From assembly GCF_963676685.1 (NCBI RefSeq), contig NC_092346.1, positions 30,566,001-30,630,000 on the forward strand: a DNA stretch of 64,000 nucleotides, in the 5' to 3' direction. The notes beneath the pieces are model-generated. The model was not told where the DNA came from. It searched no databases and saw only the letters and a list, made by a program, of their open reading frames with translations. This document shows, in pieces, positions 3,418 to 48,900 of this stretch. The stretch is from Mytilus edulis. Lineage: Eukaryota. The first letter of the stretch is position 1, and each line of letters begins with the position of its first letter. The position numbers were made by a program, and so were the translations under genes.

Positions 3418-3514
3418 GATGACTGTGGTGTTTTTATATACAGTGATTTAAATACAGGTATATTCATGCGTAGGGTCATACCATATTCGTGCATGCATAG
3501 CCATGTTTTTTTAA

Positions 3515-3791: not shown

Positions 3792-3879
3792 GTTGGTAAG
3801 TATAATAAAGGAACCACGTCGCTTATCACTCATACCTTTAAATACGTTTTAAAAAAAGTCAATTTTTTTTCTCTTTCAA

Positions 3880-6774: not shown

Positions 6775-7129
6775 ATGCAGACAAAATGTACATTCCAAGC
6801 ATGGAGAAGTGGTCGAAATATTATCAAAATGTTGTGCAGGGGAATAATAAAACGTATATAACGCACAAATACCGGACGTAATGGGTCTTTTATGATACCT
6901 ATTGAGAATCAAAAATCGCCGTCAACCTCGTCGAAATCTAATGAAAAGTACAATATTCATCTAGTTAGTCCAAGTGCGCAAATGGTCGGAGTCTTTAGAA
7001 GATGAGGGTTTGCATATAAAAGGAAAAAAACGTAAACGAAAGACCAGTCATAAGGCAACCAGCAGTGGAGTTGGCGTATGCAAAAAGAAAAGAGAACCAA
7101 AACGAGACGTTTTTTTTCAGAGTACATGA
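6771..7129 (+). pseudogene. Basic core-like (PM-like) protein gene with two frameshifts
   Basis: Three fragments in different frames: MNADKMYIPSMEKWSKYYQN / FMIPIE...IHLVSPSAQMV / IKGKKRKRK...KKKREPKRDVFFQST*. Sits between penton and MCP. Confidence 0.55.
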
Positions 7130-7136
7130 ATTAAAA

Positions 7137-8453: not shown

Positions 8454-8892
8454 GTTCATACCTAATACTGTTTGTTGTATTTTGTCCTATTTAGATTATG
8501 TTATGACACAACCACATTATATGACATTTCTTTTTCTGTGTTTAATATTTCTATTTGTCTAATAAATATTCAAATATAATTCTTTTACTTGTTTTTTTTC
8601 TTCCTGTTCGTCTTTTAAAATGTCTTCGCTATAGAACTGATGCATTGATTTAAGTTTTTTTTTACATTGCTGCTGGTCATTTACCTGCTTTCAGGTAATT
8701 TATTAAGTTTGAAAACCAATTTGGAAATTTTGTGCAAGAGTGGTAAACATTCATTTAATTAAATGTTTTTCATCAAAACTTAAACACAACCAAAAACAAA
8801 CCAAATAAAAAAATATACGTTTGTATCAAACATATAAAACTCGAACTAAAACTTTGATTTCAACGATATGTGAAAAAAGAAGAACTCAAACC

Positions 8893-9022
8893 ATGTCAAA
8901 GGGGGGTCATTCACTTTTACCTTTCCAAACACCTTGATTAGAGTGCTCACACAGACAAACTTTATTTACTTAGAACAAATATATTCATTGGAGAGAACTG
9001 TGTGGTTTTTCTTCCGAAATAA
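8893..9022 (+). pseudogene. Internally deleted second copy of the packaging ATPase gene
   Basis: MSKGGHSLLPFQT... joins directly at 8933/8934 to the 3' end (SAHTDKLYLLRTNIFIGENCVVFLPK*). About 540 bp are missing relative to 1624..2292. Confidence 0.85.
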
Positions 9023-9035
9023 TACTTAAAAAGCT

Positions 9036-9350
9036 ATGAGTAAGCAAGTGATTAGACACGTTAATTTTCTATCCTTATTGGCTTCTGCTGAGGATCAGCA
9101 AAGACTCGCATTGATAAAAACGATGAATAACGAACAATTTAAGATCCTACTAGAATGTATATACAACATTTTACATGGAGTCGTTACACTATCTCCGCTA
9201 AATAAAAAGAAACTGTTTGAGTACAAAACGGTGATTCGCAAAATCACTGCCGAGGACACCCAACGCTTACATCGAAAGAGACTTCTTTTAAAGTATCGAT
9301 CAAATCTCATTCCTATAGTAGTAAAGATTGTGCTTGCTCACTTAAAATGA
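9036..9350 (+). CDS. Polinton PW-like basic protein, intact copy (104 aa)
   Basis: FLSLL...QRLALIKT...LECIYNILHGVVTLS...KKKL...IRKI pattern typical of the PW family. Lies between ATPase and PZ. Confidence 0.7.
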   Translation: MSKQVIRHVNFLSLLASAEDQQRLALIKTMNNEQFKILLECIYNILHGVVTLSPLNKKKLFEYKTVIRKITAEDTQRLHRKRLLLKYRSNLIPIVVKIVLAHLK

Positions 9351-10039
9351 CGAAGGAAATGATTCTTATTCCTAAACATAAATTCGAGGCTGTCTTTCAA
9401 AAACAAAACGAAGATCAATCGAAAGCGGAAGTGGTGTTACATGACACTCCACCTCGAGACAATGACCAACACAATCTGTCATATGACCAGAAACCGTTAC
9501 ATGATGATTTACGATCGTTAATCAATATCACTTTTCCATCTAGATATAAAGACAAAGCCTTGCGACTTTTGCTTTACTTACAAAAACAACCATCTATTAA
9601 GTGGGACGAACAAGGTGAAGTTTGCATTGACGGAAAAGTTATTTCAAACACTCATATCGTTGACTTGATACGTGATTCAACAGTTCCAATTGGTCGTAGA
9701 AAACTAACAGCTGGTATACATCAATTCTACCAATTTCTGAAGTCTACTAACATTCCACTTCGTTTGTTTAGGAATGTAGAAAAAAACAAACAAAGTACGA
9801 TTCGAGTCTACCTCTTATAAAGAAAAGAAAACAGAAGAAGAAAATAAGGAGAAAGAAGAAACAGATGAATACAGTGAAGATAGTGACAATGAATACATCC
9901 AACAAAATAAAAAGACAAAAAAGACAGAAACTAATTTGGAAACCAAAAAGAAAATGTATGCGCAACGAGACATAAACAGTATATTCACAATTAAAAAGAA
10001 GAGAAAAAAAAATGGTTACAATTTAAATGTTTTAACTAA
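9347..10039 (+). pseudogene. PZ-like gene, frameshifted right copy
   Basis: +1 A in the run near 9781 truncates the ORF at 9820. A further +2 A near 10005 (693 vs 690 bp). Confidence 0.75.
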
Positions 10040-17385: not shown

Positions 17386-18279
17386 GTATCACCAGCCCAA
17401 TGGTCAGCACTCGTGTGTTGAAATGAAATATCATTAGTGCTGTCATTTACTTTTCGTAAAGTGTAAAACCTTTCCGAAACAATAAGCCTTGTATACCTTT
17501 ACCCACAAATAACCATAGCCAGACATCATATTGGAATTTTTACCTTTCAATGTAACCCTACTTTGGGATATTTTTGGCCTTCGAACAATGATGAGTCTTA
17601 TGTAGACGTAACGCACGCGTGGTTTACCAAATTATACGTTCGGTATCTTTAATGAAGTTTATTAAATAGAAATATGCTCTAAAGGTCATACGAGCCCCAT
17701 TTTACCGAAACATATGTATGTTGAGATATGTATAACAACAACAACGAACTGAAAGGTAAATTCAAAAAGGGGGAAGCCTATTAAAAATGAAAAAAACAAA
17801 TCAATACAAGAGTTTAATATTACCAACTATCGCAGGTATGGAAAAAAGCTTTCATACTCCTGATTTCCCGCAAAAAAATGTGTCGTTAACCTGATGTAAG
17901 GCTACCAAATCTCCCATTTGAATGTCAGTTGTCAATAGTTATGCTATATTGACAAAATTATATATGCAAATCATACAGACATAATTTTACGATATTTGTC
18001 ACTATTTGAACCCCGTGAGTTTAATCTAAATCTTTATCTTCAGTTGCATTGGCACCTGTTCGTCTATGAATTTTTTTTATTTTGGAGCATACTTGCAACT
18101 ATTTATCACGTTATTTTAAGTTGTTTAGCCATTTACTTAAATAATAAAAAAATATTTTACAGTTTTTCAGCTGATACAACCACAAACTGACTTTCGAAGT
18201 TCGCTTCTTTTTGTTACTTGATTGGGTTGTAGAATCATTGACAGAAGCACATCCTTATGAATCGCGGAACGTTTCTGCA

Positions 18280-19578
18280 TTCAGTTACTTTCCAAAGCTA
18301 TAGACGATTATCAACAAGAATCGTGCTTTCAGTTACATTCGAAAGCAATAGACGATTATCAACAAGAATCGTGCTTTCAGTTTCTTTCCAAAGCTATAGA
18401 CGATTATCAACAAGAACCGTGCTTTCAGTTACTTTCCAAAGCTATAGACGATTATCAAAAATAATCGTGCTTTCAGTTACTTTCCAAAGCTATAAACGAT
18501 TATCAAAAAGAATCGTGCTTTCGGTTACTTTCCAAAGCTATAGACGATTATCAACAAGAATCGTGCTTTCGGTTACTTTCCAAAGCTTTAGACGATTATC
18601 AACAAGAATCGTGCTTTCAGTTACTTTCCAAAGCTATAGACGATTATCTTATCAACAAGAATCATGCTTTCAGTTACATTCGAAAGCAATAGACGATTAT
18701 CAACAAGAATCGTGCTTTCAGTTTCTTTCTAACGCTATAGACGATAATCAACAAGAATCATGCTTTCAGTTACTTTCCAAAGCTATAAACGAGTATCAAA
18801 AAGAATCGTGCTTTCAGTTACTTTCCAAAGCTATAGACGATTATCAACAAGAATCGTGCTTTCGGTTACTTTCCAAAGCTATAGACGACTATCAACAAGA
18901 ATCGTGCTTTCAGTTTCTTTCCAAAGCTATAGACGATTATCAACAAGAATCGTTCTTTCAGGTACATTCGAAAGCAATAGACGATTATCAACAAGAATCG
19001 TGCTTTCAGTTTCTTTCCAAAGCTATAGACGATTATCAACAAGAATCGTGCTTTCAGTTACTTTCCAAAGCTATAAACGATTATCAAAAAGAATCGTGCT
19101 TTCAGTTACTTTCCAAAGCTATAAACGATTATCAAAAAGAATCGTGCTTTCAGTTACTTTCCAAAGCTATAGACGATTATCAACAAGAATCGTGCTTTCG
19201 GTTACTTTCCAAACCTTTAGACGATTATCAACAAGAATCGTGCTTTCAGTTACTTTCCAAAGCTATAGACGATTATCAAAAATAATCGTGCTTTCAGTTA
19301 CTTTCCAAAGCTATAAACGATTATCAAAAAGAATCGTGCTTTCAGTTACTTTCCAACGCTATAGACGATTATCAACAAGAATCATGCTTTCAGTTACTTT
19401 CCAAAGCTATAAACGATTATCAACAAGAATCGTGCTTTCAGTTTCTTTCCAAAGCTATACACGATTATCAACAAGAATCGTGCTTTCAGTTACTTTCCAA
19501 AGCTATAGACGATTATCAACAAGAATCGTACTTTCAGTTTCTTTCCAAAGCTATACACGATTATCAACAAGAATCGTA
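18280..19578. repeat. 48-bp minisatellite, ~27 copies
   Basis: Unit ttcagttactttccaaagctatagacgattatcaacaagaatcgtgct. Explains ORFs 18257..19285 and 18760..19644. Confidence 0.95.
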
Positions 19579-22125
19579 CAAGGAACTTTTAAAAATAAAA
19601 GAGGAACATTTAGAGCCTTTCAGAAACAATACATGAACATATAGAGATAATAAATGGTAGATAAATAAAGGCAACAGTAGTATACCGCTGTTCTATTTTC
19701 GGTAAATACCAGGTACATCAAAAGGACTACAATTGTTCAGGTTTGTCTGACCGAAGGACACAGGTCAACATCAGTACTGTTTCTTTCTTCGAAAGTTTTT
19801 ACCTTATGGAACTGTAAAAAGCAATTTGTATTTGTAAAGACGTAGACAGTCTGCTGATCATAAATCCATTTAAATTTAAATGAAATGACATTTTAGCATT
19901 TTATAAAACACATTCTCTCATATATTATATCTCTAATAGGTTTCAGGGTCACACATATCAATATAGCAATGTCAGACAGCATTATTTATGGCTAAAAGTG
20001 AGATTTTAGTGTTTAACGACATCACCGTGTCACTGCCGAAAATTTATTCTGTTATAAAAATAACGAATTACACAATTAAGAAAATTTTGCTGTTTAAGAA
20101 ATGAAGGGGAAAATTATGTTATACAATAAATATTAAATATCAAATTCTTACATTTCATTTTTAAGATTTTTTTTTATAAATTGTTCGCCAAGAAAAAATG
20201 ATTCAACATTTTCATATAAGCAATTATTGTAAGGGATATGTACGAAGAATATATTGGTTTAAGGTCATTACAAGTAAATTGGCTATGTCGCAGATTTTGC
20301 TAAAATTTTGAATATAACCTTGGCTCGATGAACCTCAACTGAAAATCTCTTTTTTTTTTTTTTTTATCTGAAACATTGAGGATTTATTTCTTTTTAATAG
20401 TTAAAAGGTAAATATTTGTATATAAAGCACATTAAACCGGTGAAAAAACATATAAAATTTGTCTTCAATCCGCCAAATCTCTAATTCCTCTCCACTTTTC
20501 TTAAAAAAAACTATATGTTGTTGACACATAAATTTCTGTTTTAATGATATAAAATAATCATATAGTGACCGATTACCTTTTTTGTCTAATAATCATTATC
20601 GGACCACAGATAAATTATCACGTTGTGATTGGTTAAACGCCGTCACATGGTGACCCCCTATGAGACTGTAGGGGGTTAGTAAGTTTCATAGGGGGTTCAT
20701 GACGCATTACTGGTGACGTCATCTATTGCTGTTGTTGTGTTACATTGTTTATTTTTCAACAAAACGCAGCAGAAAAAGTCCAGCGTCCGGCCTCACCCCC
20801 TATGGATTTTACTAACCCTCTATGGATCCGTATGCGGTCAGTAGCGAACCATATAACTTATAATATGTTACCTGGTTGGTAGTGAAAAACGTCAAAGATC
20901 AACGTTTTACTGCTGCAACGCAGCGACGTTACGATTATTTCGACGTTTTTCTTTATTTTTTTCCACAAAGAGCACAACTTTGAATGATGTATACCGTTAA
21001 AACGAAGTCGATGGCCGTATCTTTTTTTTGTATCATTTTAACGGAAATTTATGTATCAATAGCATATATTGTTTTATGAAAAATCTATGGAGTAGAACTA
21101 GAGATGTGGTGATTTTTAGACAAATTTTAGAAAGTTTTATTCCGATTTTATGTGCTTTCTATATATTTGTTCACCAATTTTGTAAGAATGCAATCATTAA
21201 TATTTTAGATGATAAATGAAATAAAAGCATTATTTTTTTCATTTTCCGTTGAAGCTCATTAAAGTGTTAATAAAGAATTAAAAGAAGAAGAAATACAGAC
21301 AACACCATGTCCCCTCCCCGAATAAAAAGACGACAAGATCAGTCCAGTAAAAGCACTACACCGAAAAATGAAATTAGACAACAACAAAATCTTGCTTTCC
21401 ACGAATGCAGGTGAAATAAAGTCGACGAGAAATCGCATTTATTGATGTCACAACCAACGAAAATACGATTTGATTAGGCACAGGCATCTGTTTTTATTTA
21501 CACATCGTTGTTAATAGAATGGAACTTTATGCGAATGTCATACTAGTGATAGGTTTAGCAGCTATAAAACTAGGTTTAATCGATCATTTTTTACATACGA
21601 AAATGACTTTACAAAGTCAGGAATATGACAGTTGTAATCCATTCATGTGTTTGAGCTTTTCATTTTGCCATTTGAAAAGGGACTTTTCGTTTTGAATTTT
21701 CGACTGAGTTCAGTATTTTTGTGATTTAACTTTTTCTAGACCATATCTTAAGCCATCTGTTTCATATTTGTCAACCAAATCATTATGGGGTCCTTGAGAT
21801 GCTTAACTTTTAACATATAAAAATTGAAATCGTATCTTTTGTCGCAAAATTAATTTCTCAATCGACTCTTATTGTCAAATTAAAAGAAACCAAACGATAT
21901 TAATCAAACCTAACTGTATCTTTGGTATCCTTTGTTGGAATTTAAATTGAATAGATGCAATTGATATAATCACCAAATTTTAATTTGAGAGAACATTGTC
22001 CATATACCTGGATATGAAGTCAAAATTAGTACTGACATTGCATCCTTTTCGAGAAGCTTCAGTAGCAATATATTAATAAGAAAATGTGAAATGATTATCA
22101 TTGAGACATCTGTCCATCAGAGACC

Positions 22126-23487: not shown

Positions 23488-24518
23488 TTAGGAACTATTT
23501 CTACAGTCTTTCACACTACATACATTTGGAGGGCACGATTTTTTGGAACATATTTGAGAACACCATTCATCCATTCCATAAATATCTTCAAATGCTCCAA
23601 CGGCGTGGCATTTTGTTTTAGGGACTACAACAACATCATCACATCCACATTCACACATAAACTTGACACAGTGATTGGACCTGCAGTTGTTCAGACACCA
23701 TTGGTCAATGCCTCGAGTATGTGCATATCGACCTTTTGCTTTACACCGGAAATTTGGCGAAGTTGAGTAACATTCTCCATTTTTTGAAGTTAAAGGTTGG
23801 CTAGTTTGTGAAAACAAAGGATACGTTATCGAATCACTTTTACCCGGAAAATAGTAAATATCTGGTTGTGAAGGGACAAATCTAGTTAGAAGAAGATTTC
23901 CAGGCTTTGGTTTTATCAAAATTTTTGGCGTCGTTTTCGCCGCGATTTTTTCCCAAAAAGTTAACTCTTTTGAACTTCTCGATACTGTATTCCAAGTCGT
24001 CGAGGGTGACGATTCTTCAATTCTTTTGTCCCAAAATGATTTTTTCGTTTCTACATTCTTTTTACTTGGAGTAATTTTAAGGGGAAATGTCATGTTAGCT
24101 TGGAATTTGATGTATGGAATTCCCGTCTGCCATGAAGGTTTAATCCAATTCACATGTTCATGTTTCTCTTTGATATTAGATACATCATCATTCGAAACTT
24201 TCTTTGCAATGTCTTTGGTTTGTTGCAATTTGTCATTGTAAGAAGGTTTTGGCTTAGAGCTATCACCTTTGCGGATTTCATAAGCATTGGGACTATTGTA
24301 AACCGGCAAAGTCTGCCGAAAGCGTTCTATATTAGAATCGGTGAGATTTCTATCAGATATTAAAAATAATGGTTTATGTACATTAATTTCCGTGGAAATG
24401 AAAGCTCTATCACTGAATAAGGTATCCGACTGTATTTCGATATCAGCACAATTATAAAATGTTTCCTGCCTACCACAACCCATACACTGACATTCGTTGA
24501 TCCCTCCCATTCTATATC
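23488..24518 (-). CDS. AA15/LPMO-fold (chitin-binding type-4) secreted protein, exon 3
   Basis: tttgtag acceptor, phase 1. CMGCGRQETFYNCADIEI ends the LPMO domain, followed by a low-complexity linker and two Cys-rich modules (C-x-A-x-G...G-x-D-x-WC-x3-C...C). Confidence 0.85.
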
Positions 24519-26033
24519 CTACAAAGTATATAAACAATTATTAATGTGTTAATTGTGTTATTCATGAATCATATATCATTTATGGAATTCTTTTGATTAT
24601 TTTCTTAAAATGACCTTGACCAAGTCAGGAATATGGCAGTTGTTGTCATATATTCTGTCTCTATGTATGTTGCGTTTGTTAGCAGTTCTGTGTTTCTGTT
24701 CTTTTTTTTTTCTTATAATTAATGTGTTAGTTTGTGACACGGATTTGTTTTAGTTAAATCGATTTATGACTATTGAACAGCGGCATTGCCTCTATTTAAA
24801 CATGTAAAAATTCAAATGTCCCTAATCAAATGGCGGAATCAATAAAACACATCAAATGTATGGACAACAACTGTCATATTCGTGACTTGGTACAGGCATT
24901 GAAAAGCACTATATTGAAAACTATGGTACTGACAAACACTTTGCTCTCTGTGTTTATTTCAAACATCGTTGTCAATGTAGCTATAACACCAGGTTTAATC
25001 CACAATTTCTACATAAGAAAATGCCTCTGAACAAAGTCAAGAATATGAAAATTGTAATCCATTCGTTTGATGTGTTTGAGCGTTTGATTTTGCCAGTTGA
25101 TAAAAGATTATCAGTTTGGAATGTTCCTCGAAGTTTTGTTGTTTCTGTTATTTTACTTTTTTATATGATATAATTGAAAAGAAAATTAAATTAGAAACAA
25201 TACATTATCTTACGAAAAAAAAAAAAATTTCAATAGAACCATTTCATAACGATTATCACAAGTACATTTATTCCTTAAGTTCATATATTTTTTCTAGTTT
25301 AAGAATTTCATTAAAAAGCTTAAAGAGATATTGTAGTATTTCTGATCGATTTTCATTTAAAACAAAAAATCACGAGTTTTATGCTAATTCAAAATCGTAC
25401 TAGTTTAAAGATTTGTACAACAATACTGACAAGATTAATAGACTAAAAGTATTACAATTATTGGCGCAGAAAGACAAATATTTCGACTCAACAGTTGACC
25501 TTCATCACTTTAAAGATTTGCTAAATCATTAAATCAGCTACTATTATAGAAATTCAGATTTGAATGAAAAGTGATTTGCTAAATGATTTAATTATCAAAT
25601 AGAATACATATTAATTACACAGGGATACCAGTTTATTAATTCAAGTGCATGTCGTTGCATTTATAAAAATAAAACTTTCATCTAGTTACAGTCACGTATT
25701 GGTTGCTGATTCATGAGACGTAATTTAATTTATGCAAATTATAAGTAAAAAATGTGAACGCCATTTTTTGTTAGTACGATCTGCACAACTATTGTCATAT
25801 TAAACGTCCCAAACCATATGTATAATTATGTAAATCAAACAAATACAAACCGCAAGATAGACAAAAAACTTGTATCAGTCTGTGAATATATTTAAGAAAT
25901 GTGTAACCTTATATCTGAATAGTATGTTAAAAACTCATAATTGTTTTTCTCACTGAAGTCGGGGCTAATCATTGTAAGAGATATTGTTATAGCCCTTAAA
26001 CAAAACAAAAAAAAAACTCATCACAGATACAAG

Positions 26034-26289
26034 CATACCTGTCAACTGTCACTATTTGCGGGGGATTTCCTCCATGGAGGCTTCCAAATTGAAATTTTGA
26101 AAAAGCAATTTTGCCCACAATTTAAACAAAACAATTAATTTTACAATGACTTTAGGCTTTTAAAAGTATGAAGAAGGCAAAAAACAACATTAAAATGTAT
26201 TTGCAGGCCCCCTTGAAGGTTGTTTGGGACTATAACAGCCATCTTGCATGCAAAACCCCCATAGGCATTTTGAAAAGTTGGCAGGTATG
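26034..26289. mobile_element. MITE with CATACCTG TIRs and 6-bp TSD
   Basis: catacctgtcaact / agttggcaggtatg, with tacaag duplicated on both sides. Confidence 0.8.
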
Positions 26290-26481
26290 TACAAGGCTTA
26301 TATTTTGTTTCGCCGGATTAGTGTTTCGTCTTCATAAGACTAACCAATAAATAATGAAACCAAAAGAAGTGATGACTACTAAGCTGTAGATGCAATCGGG
26401 GACTAAATGTCTACTATCATATACATCGACCTAGTAAACTTCCGGTTTATCATTTGTGAATCTGCAAACTTTTATTTATAC

Positions 26482-26839
26482 CTGTGCTGAACTTCCACTG
26501 GAAAACACAATTCGTACATGAAATATCTGCTGGTAGACGCACGTGTAAATCGTAAATTCCACCTTGACTCCCAACATAGTAACGAGTACTCCAGGACTCT
26601 TCAATCCAAAGCATATTTCGCTCGAAGCAATCGTGGGTTAAAGTATCTTTTGAACCATTTCGTGGACAAAGACGAAATTCGAAAAAACCAAGGAGATTAC
26701 TTTTCACCTCAACTGTGACATTTACATAAGCTCCTTGTTTATATGACCTGACAGTCCTGTACTCTGCGCCATTCACCATAAGGCCATCAAAAGGTTGACC
26801 ACACACGCCACACATACCACCATTCTGCTCCCATTGTAC
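26482..26839 (-). CDS. AA15/LPMO-fold secreted protein, exon 2
   Basis: AG|VQWEQNGGMCGVCG...GFFEFRLCP...LPADISCTNCVFQWKFSTG|GT. Splice phases match exons 1 and 3 (524 aa in total). Confidence 0.88.
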
Positions 26840-27091
26840 CTTTAATAAAGTTTGATTTATAAGTATGTTTTAACTAATAGGGAAATACATATGTCATACA
26901 TTTGTATGTAAATAATGTTTAATAGTTTACGCTATCGTGTTATTTAGTCTAGTCTAACGTAAAATGATAAATGTCAACATGATAATAGGATAATAATGAT
27001 TAAATAATAATAATGATAATGATGATATGACAATAATGAACCATCACGATTATACTTGTTCTTATTTTTGATATTCTTATTACCATGATAA

Positions 27092-27257
27092 NNNNNNNNN
27101 NNNNNNNNNNNNNNNNNNNNNNNNNNNNNNNNNNNNNNNNNNNNNNNNNNNNNNNNNNNNNNNNNNNNNNNNNNNNNNNNNNNNNNNNNNNNNNNNNNNN
27201 NNNNNNNNNNNNNNNNNNNNNNNNNNNNNNNNNNNNNNNNNNNNNNNNNNNNNNNNN
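27092..27257. other. Assembly gap (N run)
   Basis: Run of N bases. Confidence 1.
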
Positions 27258-30200
27258 TCATCATTTTTTTTATTAACAGAAATGAAATGATAGTGATTAA
27301 TCATATAATAGAAATTTAAAAAGCCTTTTCCGTGGTAAGTTGATAAACAAATCATCTTCAGATATTTCTTTAATTATTACAGGTGAATAGAGTTTTCTAT
27401 GATTAGTAATGGCCATTATTTTCGCTTAATCGATTTATGACTATTGAACAGCGGTACACTACTGCTGCCTTTATTTAGCTCTTACACACCGGAATTCTTA
27501 AAACATTTATGAATAGGTTTGAAATTATGCCAGTAGCATGCTTCTTTTGTGTACTGCAAGTTTTAGCAACAAAATGGACTTATATGTTTTTAGTTTTTGA
27601 TGAGGTTCGTGTTGCTTATTCTTTGGTGTTCTATGTTGTGTCGTGTGTGCTGTTGTTTGTCTGTTTGTCTTTTTTCATTTTTGGCCATGGCGTTGTCGGT
27701 TTGTTTTCGATTTATGGGTTTGACTGTCCTTCTGGTGTCTTTCGTCCCTCTTTTATGAATGTTCACAGATTATTAGTATCGAAAAAAGAGAAGTGATAAG
27801 AATAAAGGAAAATTGTCTTAAAACAAATAAGAACCTAATATAGAATTGTCAATAGATACAAATAAAAAATTCTAAATAATGATAAATTGGCCTTTTTGCA
27901 CCGAATAACTTATTTTGTTTCATAGGTGTATATACAATTTATGAACATTTTAAGTATATTATTCAGACTGAATATAATATATTCAAAACATTTAAACACC
28001 TTTACGATGTTGACCATGTGATTGAAACAAATACAGGGGTACTGCCAAGACGAAACTATAAAAGATCTGGCATAGACACAAAATTCTCCAAATTACAAAA
28101 AAGCTTGTAACATATGATATATGACAACCACTGACAATGGACAGAACTAGGGACATGCATATGTTTATGTGACTGGTTTAAGAAAGTTTATAAAAGACCA
28201 AATAATAAAATAAGACTTACAATCATTCAAATCATAATCAAAGAAATTAAACTGCTGATATGAAACCATGCCGTTTTAACATTCTAATACCGGTTGATGT
28301 TTTTGATACATTTCGTACAAAACGTCATAAATAGTACAGGAAGATGCAATCTTGAACAATGCACATAACCAACACAAGCAAAATTTTAATGCAAAGAATA
28401 AATAAGAACTTCAATTATTTGCTTTAAACTCTTGAATTGCGAATTGATGATTATCCCCAAAAACACCAGAAGCATTGATAAAAACCAAATAAGTTCACCT
28501 AGTCGACATGGAAGATAACAAGTATAATACATAAACAAACTAGCTTTATTTATAATATACGCGTTAAAAAAAAACCTCATCAATGACATTTTTATCACTG
28601 TTGTAAAGTACTTCAAGTAATGAAAACATATTGTTCATTAAAATCATATGTCACTACAAAGAAAAATGCATTTAAAAGACAATAACCACAACAAAAAAAG
28701 TCATATCTACGATAAAAAAAAAAAGAAGCTTCAAGCTAGACACGTCAACATTCGTAAACAAACAACAAACAATGCCGATTTTACTATACGTTATGCTAAA
28801 CAAAAAGTACAGTGTTAAGTTGAATGTTCGATCTAAGTTATCAAAAAAGTATACAACATTGAAACCACAGTTTTAGTTTATTTTTGGCTCGACAAAAGAA
28901 GGCATCAATTGTTTTACTAACACCAACGTAAAATAATGGCGGCAAAAGTTAAGAATCAATGTCAGCATGACAATTATAAATGATATGTTAACAATATGGA
29001 AATCGTGTGTTTGTTCCTACTGTTTGTTTATTAAAAATCCCATGATTCATTGTGAAATGCATGTTCTTCTTCCATGATTCGAAACATATTAAATAACAGA
29101 CTCCGCTCAAGATAGACAGCAATGATTTAATTAGTGTCAGTTTCAAAATGAACGACTTGTCATCTGTGTCCATGATTACAAAAAAATCCCTTAAACTATG
29201 CAACCTGACATACGCACTTTAGTCAAGAGAAAGAAGGAAGATTTACTGTTATGTATTTTGTTCAGAGTAGCGTCTCTGTGCGCCCTGATATATGTCTGAT
29301 ACCTTCATATATTAATAATATTATTAATTATAATGATATTATTATAATAATAATGAAGATAATAATACTTATAATGGTTATAGGTTATTTCTTCAAAGAC
29401 AGAAAAAAATATTACAGTCATTCCTTAATGAAATTAGTATTTGGTCAAGGTTAAACTACATCGTTATTACAGACTGAACTTGAACTGTAATGCTTAACAT
29501 CATTAATAAAAATTAATGATGATTACTTAGTTGTACATGTACTACAGTACATGTATAAAGATTCTCTGTTGATATAAAACACATGCAACATTATAATTGT
29601 TTATTGTGCAACTTAGCGATTATTTTTCATGATAACTGATAAATTGGAATATAAATATCATCAAAATGAGTAGATAAATATAACATCTTTGTCGAACCGC
29701 ATTAAATATTTTGATTTGAAGAAAAAAAAGGACACACAAGGATACAACATCAACGTAATAGATTCATGCTTTTATTTGGGTTTTTTCCTTAAAACAATCA
29801 AAAGATTAATATCCTGGCTGATTTTGAAATATTTTCATAGTATAACGATTTGAACCATAAAAAAACCCAGTAAACTTTAACATTGCTTACATTAATTAAA
29901 ATCAATCTCTTAAAACCTTGCTATCGAAAATAGTTTTCACACGTTGTAAAAATATTTTTTTTACAATTTTAATGATTTCAGTATTTTTTAGCAATCTTCA
30001 ACATGATATTATTTTTTCATTGTTTTGCCTTGTTTTCTTGTATTATTTAGTATATAATTTATTGAATGTTTTTATTCACCATATATTATTCCATTAAATA
30101 ACATATGGAGGGGCAGGGTTTAGATTTTAAAAACAAGTTTAATTCTTTTTCTTTTCGTTAGAAGAAGTTGATGTTGGTTCCAGGTCTTTCCCTTTTTGTA

Positions 30201-33200
30201 TAGTGTTCAAACTGATATAACAAAATATTATAGATAAAGGTTTAAGTAAATTTAAAAAAATAAATAAAGGCAAGATCTACATACATCTATATAACTTACA
30301 ATTCACACTTCTAATCATTCTAGCAATTGGAGCCATGGGTTACAGTAGACATATGCCCTTTGCAATGTTTATCATTATGAAAAACATAACTTTTTAGTTT
30401 ACTTTTTTATTTCATGTTGGTATATTCATAAACTAACTATTTACAAAATTTGAATTATTCGAATTACTAAAGATTATCTTCAACAGGAATAGTTTACAGT
30501 AGCTGTATTTGGTAAAACTTTTCGATTTGTTTGCCCTTCTTTATGGTCTATGACTTCATATCTTATTTAGCCTTTTAACTTTTTTGATTCGAGCGGGGTA
30601 TCTTTGAATATGTTTTCATTAATAGTACATTTACTTAAGTGTCTCTGATGACAGTTTTCGGATTCCTTTTTTGTATTCTAATTTCTTTGTAAGCAACATA
30701 AGTACCTGTCCTTAACAAATCATATTAAACTAAACAAGGTTCTGATTTTATCCCTTTAAACTTTCATCTTTTAGTAATTGTGCAAGAAATTCATGTCTCT
30801 CTTATTTATTCCTGCATGTCATTATTATTGTTCTAAAGTACGAATCTTCAATACTTAAGTTATTTACCTGTTTGATTTAAATTTTTGAACTGTAATTAAC
30901 TTATATTGTAAACCACATAATAAGGTGTTCTACGTGGGTTTTTTTTGTACTTCCGTCATGCAAGATGGCATATTTAATTTGATTGCAGATAAGAATTTTT
31001 ATCAAAATTAATGATCAATTTTCTCAAGGTGTAACATTTTCATATATAATTAAACATGGTTGGGATCCTTTTGTGGATGTTTGTTATGTTTTCTTCTGGG
31101 GAAAAACTCAACCAGAAACAATTTTTTGACCGAGTTTGCATTGACATTTTTTGAAAGCAACTGGTCCTTGTCGATTTAGGAGTTCATACGGATTTAGATT
31201 TTTTTCTCTAGGTTTGCACAATCAAATGAACTTAAAATTCAATAAACTTTTGCTGTCTTTTTCTTCATTCATTTTCATTCATGACTAAATTCGTCCTTGA
31301 ACAATGTACAATGTATATGCAGCATGTTGAGTGTACATGATTACTGCTCATTTGAGGAGTTTTTGTTTTGTTTTATCTATGGTATCACCCTCTAAAATAC
31401 ATTCATTCAGTACCATGTCTGTATATAATCGAATAATGCAAAATAATACAACTTTAGATTCATGAGGATCATATAAAATACGTATTTTAACACCGGGGTC
31501 ATAAATTGATATATTTTGAATATGTTTAGTTGTCATGTATTATTTATAAACATTCGACACATTATATAAAAACATTCGAAGAAAGCCGATTTCCTTGTCT
31601 TTTACCCATCTGAATTTTGAAAAAATGTTTATGTGTTAAAGTGTATGTAATTGTCCTTTAAAGAGTGTATCTGCAATTATATTCGGTCTTCAAATATCCA
31701 GGAAATGGAGTTATAAGAGTTTATTTTTAAATATCAGAGGGGATGCTTAAGTTATCATGTGTAATGGAGTAACTATATTTGGGTCGAATGTATCACTAAT
31801 GAATTGCAATGTATGGCACCTGTTTGGTCTTTGTTGCCCAAAAACTATCAAACACGTATAATTATTTCGACAATGTTAGTACTCTATCGACCAAAAAAAG
31901 TTATCAACAAAACATCAAATCATTTGTGCAGTCTTTGTACAAATGTAGCTTTCTAGTATATCTAGCTGTGTCAAAAAATGTAATATGTAGTATATGTCAT
32001 CAGTTTTGTTTTAGCTTCATGTTGTGAAAAATTACCACATTTCATAAGGATTATAGAAGGAAAAGGCATTATTTTGTTAATAACAAGAAAAACTAAATGA
32101 CATTACCTTAAAATAATTTATGAAAAACAAAACAGGATTACACTGTTTCCTTGTTATATAGCAAATCGTTATTTGATCATTCCTTTGTAAAATTAAACTC
32201 CTTGAGTCCCAAAGTTTTAATAATTTCATATGAATTATACAAAATTCAGTGATGATAAAAACATTGCTCAAATCACGAAAACAATCAAGCGATTATTGAC
32301 TAGCGCATGGTTCATACCGCTGCTAGTATACTGTTGGTCACCGAAGTAACATTATCTCAGTAGTAAGTACTGACATGATTTAAAACATATTCTTAGTTAA
32401 AACACCCTACATAGATAAAGGCAACAGTAGTATACCGCTGTTCAAAACTCATAAATCCATGGACAAAAAACAAAATAGGGGTAACAAACTAAAACCGAGG
32501 GAAACGCATTAAATATAAGAGGAGAACAACGACATAACACCGAAACGTAACACACACAGAAACGGACCAAGCATCAGACAAAACACCACGAGAATAACAA
32601 ATATAACATGAAAACCAAATACATAGAAATTATAAATAGACTAAGGCCTTTCCTCCTTCAGGAAATGTTAACGGTTGATAAATTTTACTATTCTGTATTA
32701 TATTTAACTGTTCCCATATTATTTGGATTTGAAATACTGACAAAAATGTATAGTCCTAAAAATATTTGTCAATACAAATAGTTTAAAGCTGTTAGTTTGT
32801 ATCCATTTTCATCATTTTGCGACTGCACTTTAAAAACTGGCTTAAATTCCGTATGCGTTTTAATTCTTAAAATTTCATCTACATGACTAATGTTTACTTT
32901 AATGAAGGTATGTGTTTGATGTGGCACCTCAACTCATTAAACCTACTTACAAATTCGTACATTCTGTTTTATTATATAATGTTAAGAAGTACTATTGATA
33001 TAAAGCAACTTGTCAATGGCATCTGACGTATTTAATTGTAAAATAAAACTTTATATAACAGTTATGAATTCGTACGATCTGTATTATCTTATATTTTACG
33101 AAATATAACACTTAGTTACATTCTTTTGACAACATCTGAAATATTCTTATGCAAAATAGTTTTATATAACAATTATGATTTCGTACAATGTACGATCTGT

Positions 33201-33288
33201 ATTATTTTATATATCAAGAAATATAACACTAAGTAACATTCTCTTTGACAACATCTGACATATTCGTATGTAAAATAGCTTGTCTTAC

Positions 33289-33474
33289 CTCGTATCCCCC
33301 GCAGTTGAGCATATCGTCCTTTGTGTTAACAGGTACTGTTTTGTCATATCTCCATAAACTGGACCGATGCGGTGGTTCAATCATCATTGCTTTATTGTCA
33401 ACGCGTCGAATTAATAAGATAATTAATACTATATTCCATAATATCAAAGGCATTTCTATCACTATAGTAGTCAT
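33289..33474 (-). CDS. AA15/LPMO-fold secreted protein, exon 1 (signal peptide and N-terminus)
   Basis: Hydrophobic signal, then KAMMIEPPHRSSLWRY...LNCGGYE|gtaaga (phase 0). Confidence 0.85.
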
Positions 33475-34370
33475 TCAACTGCCGTAGTTTTATCCATCTC
33501 TATACAAAGAAATTAATTATATCTGCACATATTCCTTGAGAATGAAAAGTGAATGCTTATACATAAAACATTCAATGATTGATAACATATATTAGCTGAT
33601 TTATATTAGACAAGTTTATATTTGACACGATATAGCGATATAAATTCAATTGAAATCTGCATAATAATTTGAAATATAAATTTTTAAGCCGATATGTTAT
33701 ATTATTACCAAACCTGTATGGATGTTGTAATTAATGTCGACAACTCATCTCCGTGATGAAACAAGATGTCATTCGACAGAAAGTCAATTTGCATCTTAAT
33801 TTATTCTTTTCGAATTAAAAATGCACCGCAAGACAGTTTACAAATTACATAACTTATTTGATTCAATATAGGTAAAAAAATTAACTATAGGTTAACCACA
33901 AACTTTCAATTTAACTGATTTCTCATCATGACATAGCTGTGTCAAAAATTCATTATATGGGGAAAAACAGATTTATGATAGGTTTTTTAAATCCATCAAA
34001 ACACCTGTGCATAATTTTGTAACATTTATAGCATGGAAGTTATATATAATTTTTCAACGTAATCCTTTTTAATAATCTTTTTTTTGTCTTTGTGTATTGA
34101 CCTGAAAATGCATGATTATTTTTTGCTTTATGATAAGCCACCAACTATCAATCAGTGTAATAATTTAATAATTAACCTCAAGTGAGGAATCACACAGGGT
34201 TGTCCCCTTTGTCATACACTGCAGTGAAATATACCATATGTGGTTAATTTTAAGAAGAAATGTATACATTTTTACAACAGTACAAAGATGTATCATGAGG
34301 ATTCCATAATTTCAATTTACAGACAATTAAATGATGCTTGATTCCCTATTATAGAACGCAACATCTTTAA

Positions 34371-41928: not shown

Positions 41929-42711
41929 CTGTAATTTTTAGGATGGAAGACAGGAGTACCTGAAAGGAAATCTAAGTTGCAATATCTCAAGCAAGTAACA
42001 GGAATGAACAATGCCCGGTGCTTTAATACGTTAATTTGTAAACTAAACATCATGTTTATTAGAGATAGTTATTTTAAAGGCCTAAAGCCAATCAAGTTAA
42101 ATTCGTGGATGGAGTCGTTGTATTCATTTAAGCACTGCAGAATGTTTTTGTAATACAATTTATTTGGGTACGCCTGGGACTGCTTTTAAAGAACAGCAAA
42201 TCTTAATTACCAAAACGAGCCAACATTTGACAAAATATAATTTACGGTTAATATTTCCAAAAATTTTCAAGGTGATCAATATAAAATATGAAGGTTTAGT
42301 CAGTTGCTGATCATAAGTTAACTCATCGCCCATAAGTTTCTAAAAAAACCCAAATAAAAGCAAACTGTCATGAATTTATTACAACTTTTAAAATTATTCG
42401 AGCTTGATTTAACCTGGAATATCTGTTACTTTAGTTTTAATTAATGTCCTTTACAGTTATGTTTAATGGAAAAAAGCACAAATTCTTGACAAGATTTATT
42501 AAAATGAAAGGGTTCAACTGAAAAGTGCAAACCACCTAAATTTTAATTCACGACTATATTTTTTTGTTTTTATCCATTTAATTTACAGTTCCATTTCAAA
42601 AAGGTTTTTTTATATGCTTCTTTTGCAACACAACTTCTCGAAGTGCAATCTTACAAGGCCATGGACTACAATCGTTTTAGAAACTGGTAAAGTTATTGGA
42701 TTTGGTCATAC

Positions 42712-43112
42712 TTTAAATTTGCTAGTATCTCAGTTATAAGTTTATTAAAATTTGCTAGCATCTCAGTTATAAGTATATTAAAATTTGCTAGTATCTCAGT
42801 TATAAGTATATTAAAATTTGCTAGCATCTCAGTTATAAGTATATTAAAATTTGCTAGCATCTCAGTTATAAGTATATCAAAATTTGCTAGCATCTCAGTT
42901 ATAAGTATATTGAAATTTGCTAGTATCTCAGTTATAAGTATATTAAAATTTGCTAGCATCTCAGTTATAAGTATATTAAAATTTGCTAGCATCTCAGTTA
43001 TAAGTATATTAAAATTTGCTAGCATCTCAGTTATAAGTATATTAAAATTTGCTAGCATCTCAGTTATAAGTATATTAAAATTTGCTAGTATCTCAGTTAT
43101 AAGTATATCAAA
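42712..43112. repeat. 33-bp minisatellite, ~12 copies
   Basis: Unit ttaaaatttgctagcatctcagttataagtata. Confidence 0.95.
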
Positions 43113-43140
43113 CTATTAATTTTACACACAAGGCCTAAAC

Positions 43141-43186: not shown

Positions 43187-45914
43187 CTGTAACAAAAATA
43201 TTTATTTTCATAATCTTATGAAAAGGTTTTAAAAAAATATTTTTTTAGGAAGATGTCATTTGGGCAAAGACAATTCATCCAAAGACATCGGGAATAATAT
43301 GGTTTCTGAATTAATCAAACTATCGCCGGTCTTCCATGAAGTAATCAACTCCGAAGTAAGTAAATCCGCGGGAACAGTATGGTTTCTAAAGAAAAGATCG
43401 CCCCGGATACAGTACGGTTTCTGAAGTAAGAACAGGTTTTGACTTTTTCATAATCAAACGACATGATAGTTCCTTATTGTAATTAACTTCAATTTTGAAT
43501 ACTGTGGCTCTTTTTTATTTTATTATAAAAAGAATATGTGCCACATGACAACTCTCAACAAGAGACCCCATGACGCGGAAATTAACAACTGTAGGTTATC
43601 GTACGACATTCAACAATGAGTAAAACCCATACTGCATAGTCAGCTATAAAAGGTCCCGAAATGACAAATATAAAACAATTCAAACAAAAAAACTTTAGCG
43701 TTTAAATTAAGTATCAGAGTTTAAGTCGCCTAGGGCAGCAGTGAAGAGACATTTAAATTGTCGAACTGCGAATCTAGGGCAGTAAATTAATGCCGTTGTT
43801 GTTTTAATTCCATATAAAGATTAAGATGTCGATCTCGGTCAAAATAAAAGAGAAGAACTTGATTCGAAAACAGAATTGGTAAAACAATAAAAGAAGATAG
43901 AGTTCGAGAAGACTTTTAAAGCTTTTAAATCAAAGAAGGAATATTTGGAATAGCATTTCGGTAAAACAAATAGGTAAAATTTTTATACACCTTTTTTGAA
44001 TTTTGAGCAAACCGACAAATCACAAAAGAATTATCCCACTCTTGATTTCTAAATACGATTTTTTAAAGGATTTGAAAGTTTTACCTAGATTTTTTTCGAT
44101 TTAATACTTCGTTTTCAAACTAACTGTTTAAAACACCGATATAATCAGACCAACAATATATTTGGGGGTTTTATATAAACTATTAGCGTTTATTAATTAT
44201 TAATTATCTAATTTCTAACACAATTTTATATTAATATTCTTGTAATTCTTATAAAATACAACAAACTCATAGTTACAAACCTGAACTTGAACAGTATCCA
44301 ATTTTTTAGAAATTTACATGTGACGTCACTTTTGTGGCGTTGTGACTTTGATGGAGATTTGTCTCATTTGCACTCATACCACATCTTCTTATATCTATTG
44401 ACCCAGTCGTGTGAAGCCAGTTCATGGTTATGTTGTGCTGTTTTGTGTGCTGTCCTATGTTGTTTCATGTGTTCGTTTTTATTCTGTGTTTAGCATGTCG
44501 AAATGTACTATTGTATTGTTTATTGGTGTATTGATCTGTCCTGAATGTTCTTGTATTTATTTGTACTGTATTCCTGTCATGTGATGGGGCCATTTTAGTG
44601 TTATATTTAACATTGCCATCAAAAGTAAAATCACAAAAATACTGAACTCCATTGAAAAGAAAATCGGAAAGTCCCTAATCACATGGCAAAATTAAATGGC
44701 AATACACATAAAAAACGAATGGACAACAACTGTCGTATTCCTGACTTGGTAGAGGCATTTTCAAATGTAGAAAATGGTGGATTGAACCCGGTGTTATAGC
44801 GCTAAACCTCTCACTTTGTACGACAGTCTCATCAAATTCCGTTATATTTACAACGATGCGTGAACTAAACAGACACAATAAATAAAATAGTCAAAAATAT
44901 GGGTACATCAGTCGTCACCGTGTTACAATTTTACAAAAAACACAAAAGCATCAAACAAATAAAAACACAGTCATTGCTTCGCGTTTCTGACGTCAGAAAA
45001 TTTATACATCACATAGGAAGAAATTTTGTCGTTCAATGTATATACAAAATAATTTTATCATTTCACATGGGCATTGTTGGCATACAGGGTTTAAATCAAA
45101 AGTATGTTAGAATTAATTTCAGAAATAGACCGATATTTAAAACTGTCCAGAAGTTCTTTAGAATTGATAAGAATTCACAAGTGCAAGGTTTGGCTAGTCA
45201 CAGGTTCAACCCACCATTTTTCTTAAAATGTCCTGTACTAAGTCATGAAAATAGCAGTTATTATCTTATAGTTTCTCTGTGTGTTGCATTGTCACATGTA
45301 TTTTGTTCACTTCAGTGTTTCTGTTGTTTCGTTGTTCTCCTCTTATTGTTGATGTGTTTTCCTCGGTCTTAGTTTGTAACCCAGATTTATTTTTGTCTCA
45401 ATTTATTTATTTAGCGGTCTACTACGGTTGCCTTTACTTATGGAACATCGTAAAAGACCTTAAGTTAATCGTCAGTAAAATGGTATTGCATAAAACATGC
45501 AGGAAAATATCATAGATATTTACAATTTTCCCTATGTGTTACTGTTAAGGTCCTATAACTCTGGTAAGATATATCTGAAAATTTTGAAATTTTCACATTT
45601 ACTCATTCAAACAATATTGAATAATCTTTGATCCAAGCTACTCAATGATTAGTACAAAATGCAAATACAAAATTTAACCATAAAAGAGACGAGCAAAATG
45701 TTTGTCATCGTAAATAGCCTAAATAATAGTAAAGAGACTATATTTGTCAAACAACAGCGAATCTTACATAATCTTAATTCTGTCTCACACGAATGCTTGA
45801 ACAGCATTTAGGAAACTTCCTTTAAAAAACGCTTTACTGAATTAAAGATTCATGTTTCCTTTCTGGGTCATAATTGTTCATTGTTCTGATCTGTTACATT
45901 TTACTATAACTTAC

Positions 45915-48900
45915 CTCCATTGTTAACCTTTCGATACCCTGTAGACCCATAGTCATTTCCGTGACCTGAAGTAGTATGTGTGCTTTGAGATCCACCTAAG
46001 ATGTTGGATATTTGGCCGACCGAATTTCCTGTGTTGCTAGCGCTTGGTACAACTATAACCTTCTTAGATTTTTTATATCCGGAAGACCCATAGTCTTTTC
46101 CGTGACCAGACCACGGTGTATGTATGCTTTGAGATCCGCCTAAAATTGCGGCTATATGGTCAGCCGAATTTCCTGTGTTGCCAGAGTTAGATATTACAAC
46201 CTTTTTAGATTTCTTATATCCTGAAGACCCATAGTCTTTTCCTTGACCTGAAGATGTATGTGAGTTTTGGGATCCACCTAAAATTCCGGCTATAATTCGT
46301 GCCGAATGTACTGCGTTGCTAGTGTTCGGAACAACTATAACCTTCTTAGATTTTTTATATCCTGAAGACCCATAGTCTTTTCCGTGACCTGAAGATGTAT
46401 GTGAGTTTTGGGATCCACCTAAAATTCCGGCTATAATTCGTGCCGAATGTACTGCGTTGCTAGTGTTCGGAACAACTATAACCTTCTTAGATTTTTTATA
46501 TCCTGAAGACCCATAGTCGTTTCCGTGACCTGAAGATGTATGTGTGTTGTGAGATCCACCTAAAATTCCGGCTATAATTCGGGCCGAATGTACTGTGTTG
46601 CTAGTGTTCGGAACAACTGTAACCTTCTTAGATTTTTTATATCCTGAAGACCCATAGTCTTTTCCGTGACCTGAAGATGTATGTGTATTGTGAGATCCAC
46701 CTAAAATTCCGGCTATATGGTTAACTGAACTACCTGTGTTTCCAGAGTTTGATACAACTACAACTTTTTTATGTTTCTTATATCCTGAAGACCCATAGTC
46801 ATTCCCATAACCTGACGATGAATGTGTACCCTGGGATCCACCACCTAAGATTCCGGCTCGATTGCCGACTGAATTTCCTGTGCTTCCAGAGTGCGATACA
46901 ACTACAACTTTTTTTTTAGGTTTCTTATATCCTGAAGACCCATAGTCATTTCCATAACCTGACGATGTATGTGTCCCCTGAGATCCACCACCTAAGATTC
47001 CGGCTAGATTGCCGACTGAATTTCCTGTGCTTCCAGAGTTTGATACAACTACAACCTTTTTAGGTTTCTTATATCCTGAAGACCCATAGTCATTTCTATA
47101 ACCTGACGATGTATGTGTGCTTTGAGATCCACCTAAAATTCCGGCTATATGATTAACTGAACTACCTGTGTTTCCAGAGTTTGATACAACTACAACTTTT
47201 TTATGTTTCTTATATCCTGAAGACCCATAGTCATTCCCATAACCTGACGATGAATGTGTACCCTGAGATCCACCACCTAAGATTCTGGCTAGATTGCCGA
47301 CTGAATTTCCTGTGCTTCCAGAGTGCGATACAACTACAACTTTTTTAGGTTTCTTATATCCTGAAGACCCATAGTCATTTCCATAACCTGACGATGTATG
47401 TGTCCCCTGAGATCCACCACCTAAGATTCCGGCTAGATTGCCGACTGAATTTCCTGTGCTTCCAGAGTTTGATACAACTACAACCTTTTTAGGTTTCTTA
47501 TATCCTGAAGACCCATAGTCATTTCTATAACCTGACGATGTACGTGTGCTTTGAGATCCACCTAAAATTCCGGCTATATGGTTAACTGAACTACCTGTGT
47601 TTCCAGAGTTTGATTCAACTACACCTTTTTTAGGTTTCTTATATCCTGAAGACCCATAGTCATTCCCATAACCTGACGATGAATGTGTACCCTGAGATCC
47701 ACCACCTAAGATTCCGGCTAGATTGCCGACTGAATTTCCTGTGCTTCCAGAGTGCGATACAACTACAACTTTTTTAGGTTCCTTATATCCTGAAGACCCA
47801 TAGTCATTTCCATAACCTGACGATGTATGTGTGCTTTGAGATCCACCTAAAATACCGGCTATTTGGTTAACTGAATTTCCTCTGCTTCCAGAGTTCGATA
47901 CCACTACAACCTTTTTATGTTTCTTATATCCTGAAGGCCCATAGTCATTTCCATAACCTGACGATGTATGTGTACCCTGAGATCCACCACCTAAGATTCC
48001 GGCTAGATTGCCGACTGAATTTCCTGTGCTTCCAGAGTTTGATACAACTACAACCTTTTTAGGTTTCTTATATCCTGAAGACCCATAGTCATTTCCATAA
48101 CCTGACGATGTATGTGTGCTTTGAGATCCACCTAAAATACTGGCTATATGATTGACTGAATTTCCTGTGCTTCCAGAGTTCGATACAACTACAACCTTTT
48201 TATGTTTCTTATATCCTGAAGACCCATAGTCATTTCCATAACTTGAAGATGTATGTGTGCTTTGAGATCCACCTAAAATACCGGTTACATGGTTGACTGA
48301 ATTTCCTGTGTTTCCGGAGTTCGATACAACTACAACCTTTTTATGTTTCTTATATCCTGAAGACCCATAGTCATTTCCATAACCTGACGATGTATGTGTC
48401 CCCTGAGATCCACCACCTAAGATTCCGGCTAGATTGCCGACTGAATTGCCTGTGTTTCCAGAGTTTGATACAACTACAAGTTTTTTAGGTTTCTTATATC
48501 CTGAAGACCCATAGTCTTTTCCATAGCCTGAAGATGTATGTGTGTTTTGAGATCCACCTAAAATGTTAGATATGTGGCCGCCCGAATTTCCTGTGATGCT
48601 TGTGTTCGGTACCACAATAACCTTCTTAGATTTTCTATATCCAGAAGTGCCACAGTCATTTCCATGACCTGACAATATGTGTGTGCTTTGAGTTGCCCTT
48701 AAAATTCCGGCTATATGACCGACCGAATTTCCTGTGTTGCTTGTCCTTGGTACAACTACAACCTTCTTAGATTTCTTATATCCTGAAGACCCATAGTCTT
48801 TTCCATACCCTGCCGATGTATGTGAGTTTTGGGATCCACCTAAAATTCCGGCTATAATTCGGGCCGAATGTACTGTGTTGCTAGTATTCGGGACAACTAC

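Follow-up and report, generated by a model that had tools for sequence, protein, structure and literature searches.

Can an animal keep the fold of a lytic polysaccharide monooxygenase (LPMO) after both histidines of its copper site are gone, and what would such a protein do? The question is raised by a gene of the mussel Mytilus edulis, located at positions 23488..33474 on the minus strand of a window of 64,000 nucleotides (the whole stretch of DNA analysed; contig NC_092346.1, positions 30,566,001 to 30,630,000) and encoding an AA15-type protein of 524 residues. A sequence-only reading had proposed a non-catalytic, LPMO-derived protein, possibly binding chitin or serving as a scaffold in shell matrix, periostracum or pattern recognition. 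The evidence directly establishes an intact spliced gene, an AA15 fold, the absence of both copper histidines, sequence conservation, a loss shared among bivalves, and a member of the group in abalone shell. The product is almost certainly a functional secreted protein; the best reading, which we hold to be evenly poised, is a secreted non-catalytic pseudo-enzyme derived from AA15 and acting as a matrix cross-linker, possibly disulfide-dimerised. Compared to the sequence-only reading, the analysis adds that (i) the loss appears ancient and shared, (ii) arginine is the usual residue at position 1, and (iii) the clade displays invariant gained residues and an unpaired cysteine.

Sequence and structure agree in placing the N-terminal domain in AA15. 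The enzyme TdAA15A (Protein Data Bank (PDB) entry 5MSZ) is the only PDB sequence match found by phmmer (E 6.8e-42), and Pfam LPMO_10 matches the mussel protein at E 5e-15. The structure model, computed from an alignment that took in His-bearing relatives, displays the beta-sandwich with a mean predicted local distance difference test score (pLDDT) of 87-97 over ten-residue blocks of the domain, apart from one block at 72; its top Foldseek match is again 5MSZ (E 4.9e-21; TM 0.88, by target; root-mean-square deviation 1.7; 40% identity), and the first AA9 entry among the fold matches listed stands at rank 49.

In TdAA15A, the copper site and its flanks comprise His1, His91, Ala89, Tyr184, Tyr24 and Tyr166 (PMC5823890), with Tyr24 and Tyr166 named as likely substrate-binding residues (PMC5823890; PMC9156745), and full conservation of the active site was part of how the AA15 family was defined (PMC5823890). 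Both diagnostic strings of the sequence-only reading, VDN-KAMMIEPPHRSS and VKSNLLGFFEFRLCP, are found in the translated mussel protein, and both substitutions that it deduced from them hold on alignment to AA15. Lys28 (codon AAA; 33391..33393, minus strand, as are all features of the gene), whose place at position 1 follows from its distance to the aligned PP-x-R motif, stands in place of His1, whereas Leu111 (CTC, 26695-26693) replaces His91 within Ser109-Asn110-Leu111 (26693..26701), which takes the place of Ala89-Pro90-His91 (SNL111LGFFEFRLC opposite APH91IGFFEFRLC). Further replacements comprise Ala89 by Ser109, Tyr184 by Phe202, Tyr24 by Thr51, and Tyr166 by Met185, so that the two co-planar surface aromatics (Tyr24, Tyr/Trp166) are also missing. 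The motif Q199-E-T-F202 (24457..24468), including the second-sphere Gln and the axial aromatic position, is kept in Mytilus, with Ile in three scallop rows. The features listed earlier as preserved, namely the splice sites, the 524-residue frame, QE-x-F and the cysteine-rich modules, do stand; preservation does not extend to the surface tyrosines. The earliest histidine is residue 36, past the first beta-strand, so that no choice of signal-peptide cut could yield a brace. Lacking both histidines, the protein ought not to be classed as an LPMO despite its membership of the AA15 family; given established LPMO chemistry, oxidation of polysaccharides is very unlikely.

The gene is built of three exons with GT/AG sites, which together translate into 524 residues followed by TAA, with no internal stop and with all 524 residues identical to RefSeq XP_071160543.1 of M. 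edulis. Exon 1 (33289..33474; residues 1-62), ending at a GTAAGA donor, encodes the signal peptide and the start of the AA15-like domain; exon 2 (26482..26839; residues 63-181) encodes the core of the beta-sandwich and matches Pfam LPMO_10 (E 4.9e-7) and 5MSZ (E 2.4e-22); and exon 3 (23488..24518) comprises residues 182-524 and the stop codon. Intron 1 (26840..33288; 6449 nt) includes a 166-N gap at 27092-27257, and intron 2 (24519..26481) measures 1963 nt. Contigs in three of four sequencing runs (X1, X3 and X21, from three studies) pass from exon to exon over 6449 and 1963 bases, the exact intron lengths, with CT..AC at the ends, the joints lying at 33286/26836 and 26481/24517, respectively; in X1 and in X21, all three exons lie on one contig, which matches exon 1 letter for letter, and the coverage of run X2 is limited to part of exon 3. 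The RNA nature of the runs is a guess, so a retrocopy could still explain the spliced contigs. The X21 contig reaches 33519 without a joint, indicating a transcribed 5' flank (33475..33519) contiguous with exon 1, in which an in-frame TGA directly precedes the first ATG.

The signal peptide is predicted to span residues 1-27 (33394..33474) from a hydrophobic stretch and from the register with orthologs, and its true start may be Met8. The position of the cut, judged from the sequence, is uncertain: residue -1 is an atypical Asn (V-D-N before K28), orthologs displaying G, A or C there (S-D-G, V-E-C, A-N-G) before Arg. An alternative first exon supplying His1 had been named as a way in which the pseudo-enzyme idea could fail; no other AA15-type first-exon motif was found from 26840 to the window end, and the contigs join this exon 1 to exon 2. 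The missing histidines are not a sequencing error, because the same residues occur in the identical RefSeq protein of M. edulis as well as in M. galloprovincialis and M. californianus.

The loss extends far beyond one mussel. The relatives are the best 150 of 2581 matches to a brace-less profile, and because that profile selected them, the proportions are biased; from 178 proteins, the removal of six fragments or redundant rows and of matches below 110 profile positions left 160 domains. These comprise (i) 114 domains with both histidines, (ii) 24 with neither, (iii) three lacking His1 alone, and (iv) domains whose N-terminus is absent, eight of them also without His2 and 11 keeping it. As 114 of the 160 keep both histidines, brace loss is atypical of the family. 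An orthologue search, suggested by the sequence-only reading, recovered orthologs from four other Mytilus species and, sharing the loss, from three scallops, the pearl oyster Pinctada, the clams Mercenaria and Mactra, and the freshwater mussels Sinanodonta and Potamilus, with gastropod relatives in Haliotis, Patella, Lymnaea, Pomacea, Batillaria, Babylonia and Gigantopelta. Histidine is absent from the His91 column in 23/23 clade rows, and residue 1 is Arg in 10, Gly in 3 and Lys in 2 of the 19 rows with a residue there, M. trossulus having Arg. A histidine aligned at position 1 of P0040 was discarded as an artefact, its first exon lacking the family motifs.

Trees were built without the brace columns. 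In a tree of 156 rows, after four partial rows had been dropped, the mussel protein falls within a 15-row bivalve clade (Shimodaira-Hasegawa-like approximate likelihood ratio test (SH-aLRT) 99), itself inside a 24-row mollusc group (SH-aLRT 80) in which every member lacks His2; a 53-row tree under a mixture model supports the bivalve brace-less clade at 100/99 and the group of bivalves plus gastropods at 87/87. The free tree requires four changes for the origin of brace loss; several independent losses are not claimed, since the approximately unbiased test does not reject a tree in which all 22 brace-less rows share one origin (p-AU 0.44). From these comparisons, the loss seems to be ancient and shared across bivalves and, with weaker support, gastropods, two lineages that parted in the Cambrian. 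The mussel domain is 95% identical to that of M. coruscus and 71% to that of Pecten, the linker that follows it 76% and 26%, respectively. A His-bearing Mytilus paralog, used as a control, reaches 99% with its M. coruscus ortholog and 74% with Pinctada; the brace-less domain shares 58% with Pinctada, a value that is too low because a segment is missing from the Pinctada model. The domain is thus conserved about as strongly as the His-bearing paralog. A metagenome scan for ortholog DNA from which to estimate dN/dS returned no match.

Other AA15-like domains with missing histidines were encountered outside the main clade. P0096 (M. galloprovincialis, 846 residues), which also carries two fused Ig domains, and P0171 (M. 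californianus, 1110 residues) lack the second histidine and display even cysteine counts in the beta-tongue; the free tree places both apart from the main clade. In addition, P0046 from the ant Odontomachus, P0119 from Liolophura and the second domain of P0023 from the brachiopod Lingula lack His1 or both histidines, the ant and brachiopod cases being two-domain proteins.

The clade has gained residues of its own. These include a stretch comprising E143, G152-S153, D159 and H161 (26543..26599), part of which lies in a predicted dimer interface, and the beta-tongue Y183-R184-M185 followed by C191-x-C193-xx-C196 (24475..24516), in which three cysteines exceed the usual number by one. Every one of the 23 brace-less rows has E143 and C191; L112 and G152 occur in 22, H161 in 21 and D159 in 17, and an aromatic residue (Tyr/Phe) replaces Asn at position 183 in 19. 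Such states are found in 0-20% of the 114 His-bearing domains (E143, 14/114; H161, 2%), D159 being rare outside the clade. The cysteine count of the tongue is odd in 21/24 brace-less rows compared to 6/114 His-bearing ones, and the mussel domain totals 11 cysteines, 81 of the 114 His-bearing domains having 10.

A homodimer prediction was made from the single sequence of residues 28-212 with zinc along. It scored 0.32, compared to 0.01 for the best of three controls, with at least 76% of contacts agreeing between runs and pLDDT of at least 85. The mark adopted for this score had been reached by 21/30 solved pairs and 0/23 single chains from microbes, and by 17/29 pairs (7/16 for animals) and 0/30 single chains from eukaryotes. 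The predicted interface comprises 17 residues (110, 112, 114, 143-144, 146, 148-154, 191-193 and 196), among them 5 of the 10 clade-specific positions, and Cys191, Cys193 and Cys196 meet across its axis. On this model, a disulfide-linked dimer stands just short of an even chance.

The remainder of exon 3 encodes a linker and two small modules. The linker (residues 212-430; 23773..24429), about 220 residues long, is rich in Lys, Ser, Thr and Pro, basic (pI about 9.6) and predicted to be disordered, pLDDT falling below 50 over most of residues 219-427. Module 1 (residues 431-474; 23641..23772) displays the spacing C-X15-C-X3-C-X4-C-X4-C-X1-C, resembling the six-cysteine repeat of insect LPMO15-1, and module 2 (residues 485-520; 23503..23610) has a similar spacing with X4 at its end. 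The C-terminal modules gave no match in Pfam or Atlas, and no VIA-align match with Z>=2 among 48,161 chains, a result that says nothing on novelty or function. Six-cysteine modules are found in 75/114 His-bearing and 23/32 His2-less proteins, and hence predate the brace loss. P0038 (1459 residues, ENA) contains 13 stretches matching the module, with no LPMO domain found; to judge from this protein, the module would also work as a stand-alone repeat.

A place of action is suggested by an abalone relative. CLC_18633 of Haliotis laevigata (467 residues), listed as 'Uncharacterized, Chitin-bd_N; TM', was identified in both the nacre and the prismatic fractions of the shell, where as many as 9 unique peptides were recorded and coverage reached 22.9% (PMC6003135). 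One of its peptides, QNLLGYFEFR, covers the lost second histidine (PMC6003135); of five peptide motifs taken from that supplement, four, all from CLC_18633, match the brace-less protein P0027 and three also match P0028, with no match in the collected proteins beyond these two. The shells had been cleaned by three methods, and non-shell proteins can appear in such proteomes (PMC6003135). LPMO_10 is also named, without sequences, among shell-protein domains (PMC11464482). A second AA15-like protein of abalone shell, idb_67370, reaches 0.14% by intensity-based absolute quantification (iBAQ) in one nacre fraction (PMC6003135); its peptide resembles the brace-less Patella group by eye, with no match among the collected proteins.

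Since the loss is conserved in bivalves and snails and an abalone relative is found in shell, the mussel protein is probably a structural matrix protein, and an extracellular matrix or shell role in Mytilus itself is somewhat favoured. The mechanism that we propose would retain the AA15 domain as an assembly unit after the brace was lost: the chains would associate with one another through L112, E143, G152, S153 and C191 beside the dead site, and a disulfide from the unpaired cysteine of the tongue would lock two of them together. Such a dimer would carry four six-cysteine modules on flexible basic linkers of about 220 residues, and may thereby hold chitin, or further components of the matrix, within the organic scaffold on which shell is formed, the ligand of the modules being assumed by analogy from their presence on chitinolytic AA15s. 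In its fullest form, which we regard as doubtful, a chitin-cutting copper enzyme would have become, early in molluscs, a disulfide-linked multivalent cross-linker of the shell scaffold, kept in bivalves and gastropods as the animal counterpart of the fungal Arg-AA9 proteins. If so, a core component of the shell matrix is hidden beneath a 'chitin-binding domain' label, and a basic residue 1 arose twice on the LPMO fold.

Several observations weigh against a shell cross-linking dimer. Three unionid rows display an even tongue cysteine count; the dimer score lies exactly on the mark, was obtained with zinc included, unlike the calibration, and its controls lacked the His-bearing paralog; the mark was reached by 1/7 eukaryote pairs without an older solved relative; the overlap of clade-specific positions with the interface (p ~7e-4) was assessed post hoc on adjacent, non-independent positions; and the domains of the LPMO CoAA9A were wrongly set face to face by AlphaFold2 (PMC10990093). 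The abalone link to the bivalve clade is supported by 87/87 only, and CLC_18633 is low in abalone shell, at 0.001-0.012% iBAQ (PMC6003135). The shell-matrix suggestion of the sequence-only reading gains from the abalone and finds no bivalve-clade match in the supplements searched: that of Perna viridis shell holds two PF03067 proteins, both with His2 and none with clade motifs (PMC6641155), and term searches in the supplements of PMC10639161, PMC4517812, PMC5854119 and PMC3374290, covering M. galloprovincialis, M. coruscus, a bivalve shell proteome and Lottia, gave nothing, although these files may hold no sequences. Finally, one-base insertions occur in exon 3 homopolymers (X21 contig at 23945, X2 contig at 23610), near which a 352-residue GenBank model of M. 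edulis, CAG2224823.1, stops within the linker; these may reflect truncating alleles that segregate, or homopolymer errors, and the AA15 domain is untouched by either the insertions or the model ending.

Among the alternatives, a chitin binder or lectin that works as a non-catalytic monomer through the old flat face, in shell, periostracum or gut matrix, survives best and is nevertheless unlikely. The fold and the flat face are retained, an aromatic is kept at position 61 (Y/F in 18/19), a new Tyr/Phe stands at 183, the six-cysteine modules are common among His-bearing proteins, and the abalone member is present in shell. On the other hand, Mytilus has Thr51 and Met185 at the two flanking positions, where Tyr/Phe stands in 103/114 and Trp/Tyr in 97/114 His-bearing domains; plain binding of chitin by the former active-site face is thereby less credible, and the invariant extra cysteine is left unexplained. 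A regulator or carrier, in which the gained surface and the free cysteine bind a His-bearing AA15 paralog, a chitinase or a matrix protein and tune chitin remodelling, is distinctly improbable. Partners are available, His-bearing AA15s occurring in the shell of the mytilid Perna and in Mytilus (P0033), and the surface predicted to pair with itself might just as well accommodate a paralog; however, the interface residues are particular to the clade and seldom occur in His-bearing domains, a pattern that better fits self-pairing.

Recognition of microbial glycans in mucosa or haemolymph, the presence in abalone shell being incidental, is given little chance. Recognition families typically evolve fast, and the 71% identity between mussel and scallop domains, together with apparently few copies per species among the collected matches, speaks otherwise, as does the occurrence of the abalone protein in both shell layers after the three cleaning methods; its scarcity there and the known presence of non-shell proteins (PMC6003135) would suit this view, and a C1q-domain gene within the window is a weak point in its favour. 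A relocated metal site, in which Cu, Zn or Ca is held by H161, E143 and D159, perhaps joined by H36, for other chemistry or as a structural metal, has a smaller chance still: the first three residues are frequent in the clade and rare elsewhere, but a free N-terminal His is impossible, residue 36 is His in just 10/21 rows, and no zinc contacts are reported for the dimer prediction. Decay, mis-annotation or another first exon supplying His1 is practically negligible, since the gap in intron 1 and the frameshift-like differences in exon 3 are outweighed by the direct splicing of this exon 1 to exon 2, by the loss of His91 in exon 2, independent of any first exon, and by a loss found in many genera with the domain far more conserved than the linker.

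The rest of the window holds several further features. The cluster at 648-9817, on both strands, which we take to be Polinton/Maverick-like, comprises an integrase with a chromo domain (5180-6313, plus strand), a Pox_A32 ATPase (1627-2340, minus), a stretch of 477 residues with no Pfam match (7020-8450, plus), and two stretches that nearly duplicate each other on opposite strands, 648-1439 (minus) and 9221-9817 (plus). Tandem repeat arrays give stop-free frames at 18242-19641 and 42691-43116. A stop-free stretch of 1894 residues (45907-51588, minus), with repeats of about 56 residues rich in Gly, Ser, Val, Lys, Asn, Tyr and His, has no convincing Pfam match and resembles a structural protein of shell, periostracum or byssus; the C1q domain exon lies at 60027-60488 (minus; Pfam E 3e-25).

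Compared to TdAA15A (PMC5823890), the mussel protein shares the fold, a predicted signal peptide, the cysteine scaffold, the second-sphere Gln and the axial aromatic position. The two differ in the substitutions given above and in Asn164, replaced by Tyr; in addition, the mussel protein has 11 cysteines instead of 10 and adds the long linker and two modules. The closest architecture is that of the insect group I LPMO15-1, an AA15 domain followed by two six-cysteine repeats of spacing C-X15-C-X3-C-X6-9-C-X4-C-X1-C (PMC9156745), the third spacer being X4 in the mussel and the ending of module 2 deviating as noted; LPMO15-1, which acts in cuticle turnover, has H, Y, A, H, W and F at six key sites (PMC9156745), of which the last alone is kept in the mussel. 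CoAA9A also has one unpaired cysteine, through which it forms a covalent LPMO dimer that binds polysaccharide better, yet it is active and its cysteine lies in a disordered tail (PMC10990093), whereas that of the mussel lies within the domain and its dimer is predicted. Together with the bivalve proteins, CLC_18633 displays the RA, NLL and GYRMG states and belongs to the brace-less group by its exact peptide matches to P0027/P0028; with a domain about 50% identical to that of the mussel, it is referred to as a relative and not as a one-to-one ortholog.

Brace loss on an LPMO fold has a fungal precedent in Arg-AA9 and LsAA9B, for which Frandsen 2019 is reportedly the source work. These proteins have an N-terminal Arg for His, no brace, and are devoid of a copper site (PMC10486138, PMC10354095), and the available parts of those two accounts give no description of their function. 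The mollusc group likewise displays a basic residue in place of His1 (R or K in 12/19 clade rows) with the brace absent, but it is not AA9, its best structural match being AA15. Given the different family and kingdom, the loss is therefore convergent. The extra cysteine and the six-cysteine modules further distinguish the mussel protein, none being seen in the Arg-AA9 accounts in the parts available (PMC10486138, PMC10354095). No description of a brace-less AA15 group was found in the literature searched, which included the available parts of PMC7924993, PMC7828015 and PMC12537917, with subscription papers and a 2022 review lying outside the search; brace loss with an N-terminal Arg is thus already known in fungal AA9, and the mollusc AA15 case is seemingly undescribed. 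Such a long-conserved branch implies that animals also use the fold for a second purpose that involves no oxidation and that LPMO_10/Chitin_bind_3 labels in shell proteomes and mollusc CAZyme counts mix enzymes with non-enzymes, and it provides a tractable parallel to the fungal Arg-AA9 proteins.

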